DNA of 64,000 bases. Source: an uncultured archaeon (GTDB taxonomy: Archaea; Asgardarchaeota; Thorarchaeia; Thorarchaeales; Thorarchaeaceae). Location: assembly GCA_964610875.1 (NCBI GenBank), contig CAZSWP010000006.1, positions 1-64,000 of the forward strand, written 5' to 3'. Below, piece by piece: positions 1-34,298 of this stretch. The position numbers were made by a program, and so were the translations under genes. The notes beneath the pieces were generated by a model. It had not been told where the DNA came from, made no database searches, and saw only the letters and a list, made by a program, of their open reading frames with translations. Every line of letters starts with the position of its first letter. Positions within the stretch are counted from its first letter, which is position 1.

Positions 1-453
1 GCCTTGGTTCATGTCATCTTGGAACTCTTCAACAACATCATTGATAGCACCAATGTCCTCAATGATGACTGCGTCAAATTCGTAGACCTTGTCAAGTTCT
101 CTTTCGTTGATTTTCTCCTTAGAGCCCCAAGCTGCATAGCCATAGTCGGCATACCTGATTGATGATTCAATCTTATCTGTGAGTGCCAGCATTCTATCAA
201 AGGTTTCCCAGGTTTTGGTCAGGTTGTAGTCAACCACCATCATTTGGAGTTTTTCGAGGTCTTGCTTGACAAGTCGAAGCTGGTCTGCAAGAAATTCTCT
301 GAGGACCTTATCAGCTGAGCGGCGTTCCTCCTTCTCTTGGTAGCCATGCCATCCAGGGATGTAATGTGTTATCTTTCCAAATACGCCACCTTTGATGTCT
401 TTGGCTGCCTTCTTTCTAATACGCTTGGCAATAGGATCTGTGACCTTGCCCAT
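1..453 (-). CDS. Conserved hypothetical helical protein, 3'-truncated by the window edge (absent from the ORF track)
   Basis: ATG at 453 preceded by AGGAG. Frame is open for 151 codons to position 1: MGKVTDPIAKRIRKKAAKDIKGGVFGKITHYIPGWHGYQEKEERRSADKVLREFLADQL...IRYADYGYAAW...ELDKVYEFD. The IPGxxGYxEKExRRxADKxxR pattern is a recurring prokaryotic hypothetical family. Confidence 0.85.
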   Translation of the reverse strand, partial: MGKVTDPIAKRIRKKAAKDIKGGVFGKITHYIPGWHGYQEKEERRSADKVLREFLADQLRLVKQDLEKLQMMVVDYNLTKTWETFDRMLALTDKIESSIRYADYGYAAWGSKEKINERELDKVYEFDAVIIEDIGAINDVVEEFQDDMNQG

Positions 454-28274: not shown

Positions 28275-28838
28275 ATGATAGTCACAAGAGAAGACCTTCG
28301 AAGGATGCGTATGGAGGCAGGATATAGTCAGTCAGATTTGGCAGATGTGGTGGGGGTTTCTCAAGCATATATCGCACGAATGGAACGAGGTGATCTGGAT
28401 CCCAAACTCAGTATAGTCCATGCAATCGTAGAAACACTGACAGGTCTGAGAAAATTATTGTGTTCTGAAATCATGACTGAGAATCCAGTAACCGTTGACT
28501 CACGTCAGACGATTCATGATGCTATTGAGCGGATGAAGGAGGGACACTTTTCACAATTGCCGGTTGTTAGAGGAAATAGAGTTATTGGTTGTGTGACAGA
28601 TGAGGATGTCTTTATGGCGAGGGGTTTAGACAAGAGAAGGGTTTCCGTTGAAGCTATCATGAATCCATTGGGAATTCCGACTGTCGAAGAAGAGACTCCT
28701 ATTTCAGTCATCCTTCCGTTATTCCAGACTTTTCAAGCAGTAGTGGTACAGAATCAGGGTCGGATTAGTGGAATCATCTCCAGAACTGACTTGTTGAAAT
28801 TAGGAAAACAAGGAATCCGTGTACGAGTATCCGTTTAG
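28275..28838 (+). CDS. XRE-type HTH transcription regulator with tandem CBS domains
   Basis: LRRMRMEAGYSQSDLADVVGVSQAYIARMERGDLDPKLS followed by FSQLPVV and GIISRTDLL. Confidence 0.92.
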   Translation: MIVTREDLRRMRMEAGYSQSDLADVVGVSQAYIARMERGDLDPKLSIVHAIVETLTGLRKLLCSEIMTENPVTVDSRQTIHDAIERMKEGHFSQLPVVRGNRVIGCVTDEDVFMARGLDKRRVSVEAIMNPLGIPTVEEETPISVILPLFQTFQAVVVQNQGRISGIISRTDLLKLGKQGIRVRVSV

Positions 28839-29038
28839 GAGTTGCGACATCAGGATATGAGCTTGCAAGAGAAGCATCTGATCGAACTGGGCGTGTAGAT
28901 ATCTCAGGTCTTGCCTAATCGACTTGATTACAAAGGATGCACATTATTAAAATGAATATCAATATTACATGCATTAATGTCAGATGAGAATCTCTTAAAA
29001 GGGCTCAAAACAACAGAAGACCGGAGTAGATTAACACG

Positions 29039-29695
29039 TTGGCACGCGAATTAGATATCATCGAGGACATCCGCGATGGGATCGATACCTTCGTGGAACG
29101 TTGGCAAAAGATCCAACGAAATTCAGTGAAATCTATTCAAGCAGTGACTAACACTCTTGTACAGATTGAACATCTCGATGGCCCACTAGGCAAACTTGAT
29201 GGCTATCAAAATATTCGTGAGAACACACGTGGAAAACTTCTTGTCCAGCTCTTTGACAATCTAGTACCATCTCTTGAGAATTCCATAAAGGATTTTACCA
29301 AGCTCATGAAAATGTTCGAAACACTCAGACAGAGAGCATCAACTATTCAAACATTTACTGAAAGCCTACGTGGCAATCTTGAAGAATGGCCAGAGCTAGA
29401 AGATTTGGTAGGCTTTCTAGATTTGATTATTTTGAGTGTTCAGGATATCTTGAACATGTTTGAAGCAGAATTCCTTGTCAAAATCACTATCTTCAGAGAC
29501 CTAGAGGAGAGTGGCGTTGAACTGGGTGTAGTGAGTAACTACCTCACTATTTGGACTGCCGAACCTAATATCGAACCACATGCACTTGAGAAGTTGATGA
29601 AGGACCTTGATGAACACTTCGACCTTTTACGAGATGTCTTCAGTGGTAAAACTGGCATCCGTATCCCGGATGTCTACAAGAAGGTTTCATTCTAA
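29039..29695 (+). CDS. Helical-bundle protein resembling eukaryotic CINP/C1orf109
   Basis: N-terminal ERWQKIQ helix and C-terminal ILNMFEAEFLVKITIFRDL...SNYLTIWTAEPNIE match the CINP-family pattern as I recall it. Confidence 0.65.
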   Translation: MARELDIIEDIRDGIDTFVERWQKIQRNSVKSIQAVTNTLVQIEHLDGPLGKLDGYQNIRENTRGKLLVQLFDNLVPSLENSIKDFTKLMKMFETLRQRASTIQTFTESLRGNLEEWPELEDLVGFLDLIILSVQDILNMFEAEFLVKITIFRDLEESGVELGVVSNYLTIWTAEPNIEPHALEKLMKDLDEHFDLLRDVFSGKTGIRIPDVYKKVSF

Positions 29696-29715: not shown

Positions 29716-32484
29716 TTATTTCATAATTCTCTTTCTCAATTCTTCGATGATTAGTACTAATGGTGAGATTGCTAATACTATTCCAATGTCATAGATTGTA
29801 AGGCTTGCTAATTGGAAGGCTGCAGTCAATGGGGGCAAGAGGAATAGAATGGCAACAAGAAAGATGTCTATAAGATAGACTAGTAATATCACCTTATTCT
29901 TTAGCAATCCAACTTCCAGTACCGATTTTTCTTGTGACCTACAATTCTGGATGCTAAACCACTGCATTACAATAAGACCGAGGAATATCATAGTGCGAGT
30001 TTTAATTTCTGGTTCTCCAATATAAATCAGATAAATTACAAGTGTTAGGGACATCATCAACAAGCCATAGAAGATTGCTAGAGCTGCATTCTTTCTAGAG
30101 AGAATTCTGTCTTTGAGTGAATTTGGTGGCCTGTCAAGTAGGCCTTCTCCCTTTGATTCCAGTGATAATGCCATGTCCAACATACCATCTGTGACCAAGT
30201 TTACCCATAGAATCTGCAATGGTAATAGAAGAACTGGATTTGTAAATAGCAAGAGTGTAGATAATATGAGGAAACTCTCGGAAAAGTTTGTCGACAATAA
30301 GAACAATACTACTCTCTTTAGACTATCAAGGATATGTCGTCCTTCTTCTACACCATCGACTACAGCTTGGAATCTCTCATCCTGAAGAATGATATCTGCA
30401 GCTTCTTTTGCAATATCCGTCCCTGTGATGCCCATAGCAATTCCAACATTGGCTTGCCGAAGTGCTGGGCTATCGTTCACGCCATCTCCATTCATTGAAA
30501 CAATATTCTCTCTACTTTGTAGCGCCTTAACGACGCGGAGTTTATGAATTGGACTTGTTCTAGATAGAATTGTGATATTCGAATTCACTGCTTCTGCAAG
30601 TTCTTCATCATTCATATTATCAATGTCATCGCCTATTATAGCTCGGTCTCCTCTCGTTTCGTTGTATATACCCACTTCTTTGCCTATCGCCTTTGCAGTG
30701 AACTCATTATCTCCGGTTATCATCATGACTGAAATACCTGCATTCTCTGCTTTCTGGATATATTCTGAAACTCCTGCACGAGGTGGATCATTAATTCCAC
30801 AAAAGCCTACAAATTGCATTCCAGACAGATCTTTCTCTGAAATATCATTTTGAGTTTCAGGAACCCACTTTATTGCACATGCAAGTATACGTAATCCTTG
30901 AGAAGCAAAGTCATTGGCAATCTCTTCTGATCTGGAGGGGTTTTCCAAAAATGTTTCAATGATTTCAGGAGCTCCTTTCACAATGATGAGGTTTGAATAG
31001 ATGTCATCTTCGACTCCTTGATGTCTGTGAAGTGTAGCCATGTATTTTCTTTCACTAGAGAATGGTATCTCAGAAATTCTTGGCCATGATTCATCTAAAA
31101 CATATCTATGTAAACCTGCCTTCTCCAATGCAACAAGTAATGCTCCTTCAGTAGGTGAACCTCTAATTTTCCAGATTCCCTCTCCTTGAAGACATCTTGT
31201 TCTAGGGTCTTTCTCATCTAAGCATTCATAATATAAATCCGAATCGTTACATAGAGCAAAAAATGAGAGGATGTCTTCTAAATCGGGAAAATCTCCCAAC
31301 AAATTTCCTTTGATTGGATTATCATTGTCAGCTGATGTCACAGGTTCTGAAAATTTTTCTGACCTCAGACACCCTTCTGGTCCACATCCTGCCAGATAGA
31401 TATCGCCTGAATTCACATCAAAGCCGGAACCGCTTACTTCATAGAAATGACGCGATGTGAAAATACGTCTGACAGTCATCTGGTTTTGTGTCAGAGTTCC
31501 TGTCTTATCAGTACAAATTACATTGACAATTCCTAAGGTTTCTACAACTCCTAGATTCCTGACAATCACGTTCTGTTTTGAAAGTCTGTACACACCCACA
31601 GAGAGGACGATTGTAATGATTGCAATGAGGCCTTCAGGAATTGCAGATACTAAGGCAGATAGCGAGAAGAGTAATAGTTCGATTAGGTCAATACCTCTGA
31701 ATAATCCCAGCAATACTGTTGAGATTAGAAAACCGAATGACAGTATCAAAAAGAAAATGCTGAGTCTCTTTGTTCTTACCACGATCGATGAGGGTTCTTT
31801 TTCAATACCCGTAATCTCTTTATTGATTTCACCTAATACAGTATAATTTCCTGTCTTCTCAACTAGAACTCGACCCCTTCCCTGGGTAACAAAGGAGCCT
31901 GCAAAGACCTTATTTGACTCCTCATAATAGTGAGGATTTTCTATCAGACAAATTACTTTCTTATTAATCGGGAGGCTTTCTCCCGTGAGTAGACTTTCAT
32001 CGACTGTAAGATTACGCTCAAATAATACTCTACCATCTGCAGGTACTTTTTCACCAGCTCTAAGTAGAAGAATATCCCCGGGAACAATCTGCTCAGAGAG
32101 AATTTCCATTTCCTCTCCATTCCTGATTACAAGTGATTTCTGTTCTATGAGTTGTTGTATTGATTCAATTGTTCTTTCTGCCTTGTATTCTTGAACAAAA
32201 CCAATTATGGCATTGATTATGAGAATGATGAAGATAACAATGGCATCGACAGCATGGTTTGCGAGAATTGATACAATTGCAGCAAGAATGAGAACATATA
32301 CTAATGGTGATCTGAATTGATTCACAAATAGTAATAGAGGATTGATACGTTGTGCTTCAGTCAATCTATTGAGCCCGTGAATTTGTAATTTTTCAACAGC
32401 TTCCTCACGATTCAATCCTTCAGGGTTTGACCCGATACTCAGTACACATTCATTGTATTCTATGTGTTGTTCTCCACCATCCAC
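29716..32484 (-). CDS. P2A-type cation (Ca2+) transporting ATPase
   Basis: VDESLLTGES, IPEGL, DKTGTLT, KGAPE, DPPR, MITGD, GDGVNDSPAL, STNFSE, WVNLVTDG. Likely GTG start at 32484. Confidence 0.95.
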   Translation of the reverse strand: MDGGEQHIEYNECVLSIGSNPEGLNREEAVEKLQIHGLNRLTEAQRINPLLLFVNQFRSPLVYVLILAAIVSILANHAVDAIVIFIILIINAIIGFVQEYKAERTIESIQQLIEQKSLVIRNGEEMEILSEQIVPGDILLLRAGEKVPADGRVLFERNLTVDESLLTGESLPINKKVICLIENPHYYEESNKVFAGSFVTQGRGRVLVEKTGNYTVLGEINKEITGIEKEPSSIVVRTKRLSIFFLILSFGFLISTVLLGLFRGIDLIELLLFSLSALVSAIPEGLIAIITIVLSVGVYRLSKQNVIVRNLGVVETLGIVNVICTDKTGTLTQNQMTVRRIFTSRHFYEVSGSGFDVNSGDIYLAGCGPEGCLRSEKFSEPVTSADNDNPIKGNLLGDFPDLEDILSFFALCNDSDLYYECLDEKDPRTRCLQGEGIWKIRGSPTEGALLVALEKAGLHRYVLDESWPRISEIPFSSERKYMATLHRHQGVEDDIYSNLIIVKGAPEIIETFLENPSRSEEIANDFASQGLRILACAIKWVPETQNDISEKDLSGMQFVGFCGINDPPRAGVSEYIQKAENAGISVMMITGDNEFTAKAIGKEVGIYNETRGDRAIIGDDIDNMNDEELAEAVNSNITILSRTSPIHKLRVVKALQSRENIVSMNGDGVNDSPALRQANVGIAMGITGTDIAKEAADIILQDERFQAVVDGVEEGRHILDSLKRVVLFLLSTNFSESFLILSTLLLFTNPVLLLPLQILWVNLVTDGMLDMALSLESKGEGLLDRPPNSLKDRILSRKNAALAIFYGLLMMSLTLVIYLIYIGEPEIKTRTMIFLGLIVMQWFSIQNCRSQEKSVLEVGLLKNKVILLVYLIDIFLVAILFLLPPLTAAFQLASLTIYDIGIVLAISPLVLIIEELRKRIMK

Positions 32485-32636
32485 TCTATCTCTCTCCCTT
32501 TTGCTATAGGAATTGTATTGCTTGTATTTCATTGTATGATAAAAAAACTCTCGAAATGGCATAAATTAGCGGCAGTCATCGATTTTTGATTGACTTGCTG
32601 AGATATGCATTGAAGTGTGGATAGCTAATGATTATT

Positions 32637-34298
32637 TCAAGAAGAATGAGTTGCTTGTTTCTCAGAGGATGCTCTTCTAGAAATTCCTGCCATTCTTTTT
32701 CTTGAACATAACTCCTCCAACTCCGACTCAATCTCACTTTTACATTCTTCATATGCGACTTCTGAAATTCCACCTTTTTCATATTCCGTATCATAGTATT
32801 CTAGTTTCTTTCTGAGAAGTTCCTCTCTTATCTCCAACTCTCTTAGTCGTGCACGTCTTTCTGCAACAATTTTTCTAAGCTCACGTTCAATTTCAAAGAT
32901 TTGCTCTTCAAGTTCCATCTTTAAACGTGAATATATTTTGGAATCGACCTTACCTTCAGTATATTGATCAACCAAATGAAGGAGTGCTTGTCGGATAGCA
33001 TTTCTTTCCGTAGTTATCTCTTGTGGCCTATCTTGCTCTTCAAGTAAATCCAATTTTTTAGCAATAAATGGTGTCGTCAAGCCTTGAATTATTAGACTCA
33101 TCATTATAACAATAAAAACAATAGAATTGATTATGAATCCAATTCGAGTGGCACTGATTCCTAAGAAATTCTCAACTTCTATCCCATACTCAAGAATAAC
33201 TGATACTGCGATTGCCGCAAGTGCAGCACTAGCTACACCTTTTACTCCTGCCCAACTGATTAGAAATCTGTCTTTCCAATCTACTGTTCTATCATGTAAT
33301 GTTACCAGAAATACCGATGCTGGTCTTGCGATAAAGATGACAAGTAATCCTACAATAATTCCTGTAAGCACAAGTGTGGGGTCTGCTGCAAGTGCAACAA
33401 TATCAAGTGTAAAACCAAGAAGAATGAAAATAGCTATTTCGAATACAAAGGAAACATTCTTTGTTACTCCCCGCATTGACTTTTGCGGCATCACATCAAG
33501 ACCAATCAAATTTGCGTTAGCCAAGAATATTCCCGCAAAAACACAAGCTAAAGCTCCTGGATGTACTCCTAAGAGAATCTGTGCTACCCATTCACCTATT
33601 CCATAGGCAAGTATTGGTGTTGTTGCAGTTAGTATCGCAATATTCGTGTCTTCTACGGTCTTATATACTAATCTTCCGATTCCCCATGCAACACCATATC
33701 CAATTACTACACCAAGTCCCATGCTCAAAACGAAATCAAGTAGAATGATGTACCATTCTTGATATAGAGGTGGAACAATCAATGGTTCATACACGGTTGT
33801 CACAAGAATGACGGCTGTTGCATCATTGAATACAGCTTCACCTTCTAACAGAGTGAAGAGTTTCCTTTTAACTCGGACACCCCCACTTTCGAGTACCGAA
33901 AACAGTGCTGCAGGATCTGTAGCAGACAATATCGCACCAATGAGTAAAGTGAGTCCTAGGACTGGTAATGCAAGAGTGAAATAAATGGTAACACCAGCAA
34001 TGACTGAAGTCAGTAGAACTCCTAGAGTCGCCAGCAAGACTATCGACGTCTGAGCCTTCTTTGTTTCCTTGAGATTCATTGTCAATCCTGCATAAAACAA
34101 GACTGCAGCCAGTGCTAACTGTGCAATGAAATCTATTCCAAATTCTGTTGGCAGAAACGAACCAGTGAATGTCTGTCCAAGGATTATCCCTGCAATAATC
34201 AGAGGTATCGGATAGGGGAATCGATACTCTTCTGCGAGTTTTGCTAATGCTGCTCCTGTTATTAATATGCCCGCAATCAGGTACAATTCAACTGCCAC
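32637..34298 (-). CDS. nhaP: CPA1/NhaP-type Na+(K+)/H+ antiporter with C-terminal coiled-coil tail
   Basis: ATDPAAL, EGEAVFNDA, ARP, WAGVKGVAS, IQGLT. Confidence 0.9.
   Translation of the reverse strand: MAVELYLIAGILITGAALAKLAEEYRFPYPIPLIIAGIILGQTFTGSFLPTEFGIDFIAQLALAAVLFYAGLTMNLKETKKAQTSIVLLATLGVLLTSVIAGVTIYFTLALPVLGLTLLIGAILSATDPAALFSVLESGGVRVKRKLFTLLEGEAVFNDATAVILVTTVYEPLIVPPLYQEWYIILLDFVLSMGLGVVIGYGVAWGIGRLVYKTVEDTNIAILTATTPILAYGIGEWVAQILLGVHPGALACVFAGIFLANANLIGLDVMPQKSMRGVTKNVSFVFEIAIFILLGFTLDIVALAADPTLVLTGIIVGLLVIFIARPASVFLVTLHDRTVDWKDRFLISWAGVKGVASAALAAIAVSVILEYGIEVENFLGISATRIGFIINSIVFIVIMMSLIIQGLTTPFIAKKLDLLEEQDRPQEITTERNAIRQALLHLVDQYTEGKVDSKIYSRLKMELEEQIFEIERELRKIVAERRARLRELEIREELLRKKLEYYDTEYEKGGISEVAYEECKSEIESELEELCSRKRMAGISRRASSEKQATHSS

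Follow-up and report, generated by a model that had tools for sequence, protein, structure and literature searches.

Background

The SPATA5-SPATA5L1 unfoldase (55LCC) acts in the maturation of the 60S ribosome and the turnover of the replisome, and mutations in it are found in neurodevelopmental disease; CINP and C1orf109 are cofactors essential to it. Human CINP is a subunit of the SPATA5-SPATA5L1-C1orf109-CINP complex, in which the N-domains of the ATPase and two T-shaped C1orf109-CINP heterodimers build a funnel-like lid on top of the SPATA5-SPATA5L1 hexamer, and in which the loop between helices 1 and 2 of C1orf109 inserts into CINP (PMC12019325). Mutation of C1orf109 L63, L69 and L73, or of CINP L162, S181 and S184, breaks complex assembly, and the N-terminal extension of CINP that carries the PRKP and RKIK motifs is conserved and dispensable for complex formation (PMC11055677). 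The Arabidopsis OPENER complex likewise contains a C1orf109-like protein (OPNR) and a CINP-like protein (OAP1), together with CIP111 and CDC48D (PMC12332008). By this description, a CINP/C1orf109 pair on a Cdc48-family ATPase is common to plants and animals, and the pairing is therefore ancient in eukaryotes.

Koestlbacher et al. described homologues of CINP, named 'CINPL', from five major clades of Asgard archaea and from no other prokaryotic group (bioRxiv 10.1101/2024.07.03.601958; PMC12962969, Fig. 4h) and placed eukaryotes as sister to Hodarchaeales (July 2024 preprint; Nat Microbiol March 2026, PMC12962969). In the searchable text of the paper and preprint, only CINP is discussed, with C1orf109 appearing just in a cited title; the same text search returns neither a single-copy state, nor a link to the Pfam family PF15011, nor the retention of both halves of the interface.

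In the following sections, we describe a member of this family from a Thorarchaeota-type Asgard genome (3.75 Mb in 124 contigs, 95% complete) and compare it with these systems. As references we use human CINP (PDB 8CIH, 9GWJ_B, 8RHN_C and 9LGO_J) and human C1orf109/AIRIM (PF15011; PDB 9GWJ_A, 8RHN_A and 9LGO_H). "The window" denotes the whole stretch of DNA that was analysed, 64,000 nucleotides in length.

The gene and its start codon

The gene is an open reading frame of 218 codons and a stop, identified from the ORF list and its translation. A first-pass annotation, made from the sequence alone, had described a 218-residue all-helical protein at this place; the reading frame is exact, and the structural model given below is all-helical. 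The coding sequence and its start are as follows.

29039..29695, + strand: CINP-like (CINPL) coding sequence, 218 amino acids and stop (ORF list, 147 homologues, human CINP profile match, PF15011 at 26.3 bits)
29039..29041, + strand: TTG start codon (sequence; in the alignment, homologues begin here too, with 'MAR...')

An in-frame TAG at 29027-29029 lies four codons upstream of the TTG, and a GGAG is present about 12 nt upstream of it. The public collection calls the same reading frame as a protein of 200 residues (P0002) that begins at a GTG at codon 19. That call drops the first 18 residues (window 29039-29095), which are conserved in the 218-residue homologues beginning 'MARELE...' and which form the beginning of helix 1 in the AlphaFold2 model. 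Since these residues are both conserved and helical in the model, the alignments and the prediction support the TTG at 29039 as the better start. Homologues with at least 67% identity number 147, mostly of 218 residues. NCBIfam gives no relevant match to the protein, and a scan for bacterial-type promoters and terminators around the gene gives signals at the level of shuffled sequence only.

Sequence homology to CINP

When the single sequence is used as an HMMER query, the four best matches in the PDB are all human CINP chains, with an E-value of about 0.25 (0.24), and residues 133-182 align to human CINP 'LLEMYRKELLLKRTVAKEL...SYLSMWLHQPYVE'. A profile built from 30 homologues, all from Thorarchaeota (A1), again places CINP chains first in the PDB, at E 0.003. 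Searched against 1.84 billion representative proteins, this profile finds only 28, mostly fragments or full-length proteins of about 190-245 residues. Those that are named carry the depositor labels Asgardarchaeia, Hodarchaeota or Promethearchaeota, and one further match is eukaryotic, so that the labelled relatives among these 28 representatives are Asgard or eukaryotic only. The eukaryotic match, P0146, is retrieved at E 1e-4 and is itself a CINP orthologue (E 2.6e-24 to human CINP). Used as a query for further eukaryotic CINPs, P0146 returned itself alone.

The decisive comparison uses a profile of archaeal family sequences without P0146 (A3). This profile matches human CINP colinearly, positions 5-180 against 4-180 of 196, at E 1.3e-9 and 41 bits; with P0146 added, the values become E 1.6e-13 for CINP and 7e-4 for C1orf109. 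Identity to human CINP is only about 15-19%. Because the profile matches are colinear over the full length, the similarity reflects homology rather than chance. On this sequence evidence, the Thorarchaeota protein is very probably (about 0.9) homologous over its whole length to eukaryotic CINP and a member of the Asgard CINPL family; as a full-length CINP homologue with only Asgard and eukaryotic relatives in our searches, it belongs with the proteins of Koestlbacher et al.

The first-pass annotation had proposed a CINP/C1orf109-like eukaryotic signature protein, pointing to a C-terminal parallel to human CINP and an N-terminal Trp in common. HMMER reproduces the former over residues 133-182, and in the profile alignments W22 falls on the Trp of CINP 'LILKWETL'. 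The annotation would have been undone by a lack of significant profile or structure matches; the A3 profile match to CINP is highly significant, and sequence profiles, Pfam and structure all support the proposal. Its warning that such proteins might already be included in surveys of Asgard archaea is borne out by the published CINPL family (PMC12962969).

Relationship to C1orf109

The Pfam family of C1orf109-like proteins, PF15011, matches the window protein at 26.3 bits (E 7.9e-6) over residues 19-102 only, 0.7 bits below its gathering cut-off of 27 bits, and in the precomputed list of the collection the product of the window carries the label PF15011.13. Within the family as a whole, 22 of 24 members are matched, and several relatives pass the cut-off, at 36.7-54.5 bits, with nearly the full profile covered. 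Across 301 Asgard genomes PF15011 matches one place per genome, always the gene that is found by the CINPL profile, while 14 control genomes give no matches. The eukaryotic CINP orthologue P0146 also scores on this model (26.4 bits). Because PF15011 matches both the archaeal members and P0146, CINP and C1orf109 look like distant paralogs, with the archaeal family related to both.

In direct comparison, profile A3 matches C1orf109 next after CINP, at E 0.007 and 19 bits against 41 bits for CINP, which is no better than its matches to unrelated coiled coils. Judged by these scores, the archaeal family is clearly nearer to CINP than to C1orf109.

Conserved motifs and the two halves of the interface

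In the human complex, the assembly interface is made from a loop of C1orf109 and a receiving surface of CINP. The corresponding segments of the window protein are as follows.

29102..29104, + strand: codon of W22, the Trp aligned with CINP 'LILKWETL' and C1orf109 'LWQS'
29180..29215, + strand: residues 48-59, 'GPLGKLDGYQNI', the helix 1-helix 2 loop together with the start of the second helix (C1orf109 alignment)
29447..29482, + strand: residues 137-148, 'ILNMFEAEFLVK', the counterpart of CINP 'LLEMYRKELLLK' with its L162 (pairwise and profile alignments)
29537..29575, + strand: residues 167-179, 'NYLTIWTAEPNIE', the counterpart of CINP 'SYLSMWLHQPYVE' with its S181 and S184

Human residue numbers were inferred from the alignments by subtracting 2 from the chain index of 8CIH_A and adding 1 to that of 9GWJ_A; each of the human residues named here then falls on the right amino acid.

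W22 is invariant in the family (alignments A2 and A3), and it is the sole invariant residue once a eukaryotic CINP is included. The C-terminal signature of CINP, 'MYxxELLxK ... YLxxWxxxPYxE', aligns to M140-K148 and N167-E179. In the first of these segments I137, M140, E142, V/L147 and K/R148 are conserved, and in the second Y168, W172, E175 and P176 are conserved family-wide. The human residues L162, S181 and S184 correspond to V147, N167 and T170, and thus lie within the two most conserved motifs of the family. The window protein therefore resembles human CINP in the Trp of helix 1, in 'MYxxELLxK' and 'YLxxWxxxPYxE', and in the positions of L162, S181 and S184. It differs at residue 177, where Thorarchaeota have N and most family members have Y, so that human Y191 is replaced by N.

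A further difference concerns the N-terminus. The window protein starts directly at helix 1, and the alignments begin at about residue 20 of CINP; the N-terminal extension of about 20 residues with the PRKP and RKIK motifs is absent. We treat this extension as a eukaryotic addition and not as a core feature.

The C1orf109 half is assigned by an alignment that is only marginally significant, in which residues 48-59 are the equivalent of the C1orf109 loop whose L63, L69 and L73 bind CINP. In this same marginal alignment C1orf109 L63, F66 and L69 correspond to L53, Y56 and I59, and these positions (L53, Y/F56, I/L59) are kept as hydrophobic or aromatic residues in 22-23 of the 23 family members. 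The loop is the stretch of lowest pLDDT in the helical body (68-74). The likeness to C1orf109 would comprise the PF15011 match, just below the cut-off in this protein, and the loop hydrophobics at L63, F66 and L69, but does not extend to the position of L73, which is non-hydrophobic in Thorarchaeota (T, A or C) and is L, I or V in most other clades.

Predicted structure

The AlphaFold2 model, built on 30 homologues, is all-helical, with a pLDDT of 84.6, a pTM of 0.78 and five main helices (residues 2-47, 57-112, 118-157, 162-173 and 180-201). Foldseek, named in the first-pass annotation as a check, lists CINP and C1orf109 as its top matches at a probability of at least 0.97 (chains from 8CIH, 9GWJ, 8RHN and 9LGO; CINP at 1.0). 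TM-scores by target are 0.63-0.69 for CINP and lower for C1orf109, at 0.42-0.49, although the latter too is among the top matches. VIA-align, which is independent of Foldseek, also puts CINP at the head of its list, at Z 13.5, with 168 of 174 residues aligned at an rmsd of 3.4; C1orf109 comes third (Z 12.9). In overall form, the window protein thus shares with human CINP a similar length and five helices, and CINP is the best match by both profile and Foldseek.

Note that designed helical bundles reach nearly equal VIA-align scores (Z 13.2 for 8gl3_A, and 12.5), and that a shape search of the ESM Atlas with the model returned generic helical proteins only. As designed bundles score just as high, the fold is consistent with the CINP assignment but does not discriminate by itself; the sequence profiles carry the proof. 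It could accordingly be argued that the ORF encodes an unrelated, lineage-specific helical protein, and that its likeness to CINP arises by chance or convergence among generic bundles of long helices. The designed bundles and the ESM Atlas result are what this explanation would lead one to expect, as is the weak single-sequence E-value to CINP. It does not account for the full-length colinear profile matches at E 1.3e-9 and 1.6e-13, for the reciprocal detection through the eukaryotic orthologue P0146, for an independently curated Pfam model that matches only the CINPL gene across the 301 genomes and has no match in the control genomes, or for the specific motifs in common (W22, MYxxE...K, YLxxW...P). 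Profile matches, reciprocity, PF15011 specificity and motifs essentially refute it, and we regard it as very improbable.

Distribution, copy number and phylogeny

The family profile was used to survey the 301 sampled Asgard genomes. The CINPL gene is present in 119 of them, which belong to 8 of 30 families, and it is near-universal within these eight: 71/76 in the source genome's own family, then 17/19, 5/5, 20/21, 2/2 and three families at 1/1. The same profile did not find it in two large families, f9 (0/68) and f5 (0/28).

No second CINPL paralog was found in any of the 301 genomes, the rare double matches being fragments on two contigs or a short partial match. The source genome has no second copy detectable with the CINPL profile or PF15011.

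In a tree of 24 sequences, the window protein falls in a well-supported Thorarchaeota clade (99/98) that adjoins Asgardarchaeia sequences. The eukaryotic sequence has a branch of 3.2 substitutions joined to another long branch, which is too long to place. Whereas the published tree groups eukaryotes with Hodarchaeales, the window protein is in a separate Thorarchaeota clade.

A local irregularity was seen in one genus (g32, family f16), where three of the five CINPL matches carry a single in-frame TAA or TAG (G020:C203:119-844, G041:C5:51113-51820 and G058:C27:24873-25592). All five matches in this genus lie within open frames of 254-279 codons, which are longer than those elsewhere. The in-frame stops could reflect an insertion, a sequencing error, a pseudogene or another cause.

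Genomic setting

The neighbours of the CINPL gene are, on one side, a minus-strand SAM synthetase of archaeal type and an HTH_3 and CBS regulator (28275-28838, plus strand), which is followed by a gap of 200 bp (28839-29038) and then by the CINPL gene itself. Beyond it come a P-type cation ATPase in convergent orientation and then a Na/H exchanger. A complete Thorarchaeota chromosome of 3.16 Mb (L009) has the same gene order, except that a GNAT acetyltransferase occupies the gap and the P-type ATPase is absent; in the window, tblastn detects nothing left of the GNAT gene within the 200 bp ahead of the CINPL gene.

None of the Thorarchaeota neighbours is present on the Asgardarchaeia and Hodarchaeota contigs, and in Asgardarchaeia the gene is preceded by a TrmB regulator. 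In all three lineages, no AAA+, ribosomal or replication gene was found near the CINPL gene on the contigs.

The setting bears on the origin of the gene. Since the relatives outside Asgard archaea are eukaryotic only, one might suspect that eukaryotic DNA has contaminated the assembly, or that the gene was recently acquired from a eukaryote. The gene is flanked, however, by archaeal neighbours (SAM synthetase, HTH-CBS regulator, Na/H exchanger) whose order is kept in the complete Thorarchaeota chromosome; GC is uniform at about 0.40; 71 of the 76 genomes of the same family carry the gene, within a well-supported Thorarchaeota clade; and identity to human CINP is as low as about 15-19%. Synteny, uniform GC and distribution refute a foreign origin of either kind, and its probability is negligible.

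Several other features of the locus were observed. The P-type cation ATPase between the CINPL gene and the Na/H exchanger is a protein of 948 residues (window 29716-32562). The Na/H exchanger (32637-34298, minus strand) has a charged, coiled-coil-like C-terminal tail of about 130 residues, and its L009 orthologue carries on this tail a weak precomputed match to CdvA (PF18822), which is probably coiled-coil similarity only. Window positions 1-452 are 79-80% identical in nucleotide sequence to L009:1719-2166 and L009:2792-3236, which are adjacent paralogous genes of about 185 residues with no Pfam family; this looks like a local duplication.

The question of an AAA+ partner

The archaeal CINPL protein is here taken, as above, to be a true homologue of CINP, and the question is whether it works on an AAA+ ATPase. 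The source genome encodes two AAA+ proteins of the double-ring type that have the domains CDC48_N and CDC48_2, one of 734 residues (C15) and one whose N-terminus is cut by a contig end (C83). Both paralogs are nearest to Thermoplasma VAT, then to p97/Cdc48, and then to AFG2A/SPATA5. Both are thus generic VAT/Cdc48 proteins, and no dedicated AFG2-type ATPase was found among the AAA+ candidates of this genome. Human CINP differs in that it forms a heterodimer with a separate C1orf109; in the source genome, neither a gene for a C1orf109 partner nor an AFG2-type ATPase was found.

There is no co-occurrence signal between CINPL and Cdc48 across the 301 genomes. A C15-type Cdc48 N-domain, at about 55% identity, is found in 298 of them, in lineages with and without CINPL, and the comparison is uninformative because a near-universal domain is set against a patchy gene (119 of 301). 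In two Thorarchaeota genomes, the N-domain match contains a single in-frame TAA within an otherwise intact VAT/Cdc48 orthologue (G128:C2:157203-157766 and G143:C2:206322-206885).

The plant system differs in its other components. OPENER has a third cofactor, OAP2, and acts on RPL24C, the Rlp24 orthologue (PMC12332008), whereas the source genome has one short L24e gene only and no Rlp24-like paralog. With no counterpart of Rlp24, any archaeal client must differ.

These observations can be read in two ways. The protein may be a true CINP/C1orf109 homologue that has no AAA+ partner, in other words a helical scaffold or regulator that acts alone and has its own archaeal role, the AAA+ partnership having arisen only in eukaryotes. 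This would fit the lack of synteny with AAA+ genes in three Asgard lineages and of co-occurrence with a particular Cdc48 paralog, as well as the finding of neither an AFG2-type ATPase nor an Rlp24 paralog. It would also fit the position of the gene behind a same-strand HTH-CBS regulator in Thorarchaeota (and a GNAT gene in the complete genome) and behind a TrmB regulator in Asgardarchaeia. Against this, cofactors of archaeal housekeeping machines are often unlinked. Moreover, the most conserved residues of the family are those that mediate assembly of the human ATPase complex, and the human and plant homologues are obligate members of a Cdc48-family ATPase complex, which suggests that the partnership is old (PMC12019325, PMC12332008). 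We consider a role apart from any ATPase a serious possibility, though short of a probable one.

Alternatively, since the human and plant homologues work on Cdc48-family ATPases, the CINPL protein could by homology sit on the N-domain ring of one of the VAT/Cdc48 unfoldases as a lid or adaptor without catalytic activity, where it would help to select or present substrates. The first-pass annotation had suggested an adaptor for a Cdc48-like ATPase. Two candidate VAT/Cdc48 partners are indeed encoded, but no gene linkage, no co-occurrence signal and no AFG2-like paralog was found. We therefore hold the adaptor role to be possible rather than probable.

How such a protein might assemble is suggested by its motifs. 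It is a predicted soluble five-helix bundle and the product of the sole gene of its kind in the genome, and this one protein appears to keep both the C1orf109-type loop (L53, Y56, I59) and the CINP-type receiving surface (M140, V147, K148, N167-W172). Because a single-copy protein appears to carry both loop and groove, the alignments hint that CINPL may self-associate where eukaryotes use the CINP-C1orf109 heterodimer; we advance this tentatively, at a little under even odds. The most far-reaching form of the proposal is that the single Asgard gene is the undivided form of the later CINP and C1orf109, self-assembling loop into groove and already capping a VAT/Cdc48 unfoldase. Taken as a whole, this would be an unlikely outcome.

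Implications

The family is already published, and the window extends it by one Thorarchaeota protein without bringing in a new principle. The existence of an archaeal homologue means that the cofactor originated before eukaryotes, as has been published for CINP. The remaining interest lies in the single-copy state, in the conservation of both interface halves and in any archaeal partner. With a single gene, the archaeal protein is also a simpler system in which to study the function of the helical cap, and if an undivided form does cap VAT/Cdc48, a 55LCC-like 'lidded' AAA+ machine would be older than eukaryotes.
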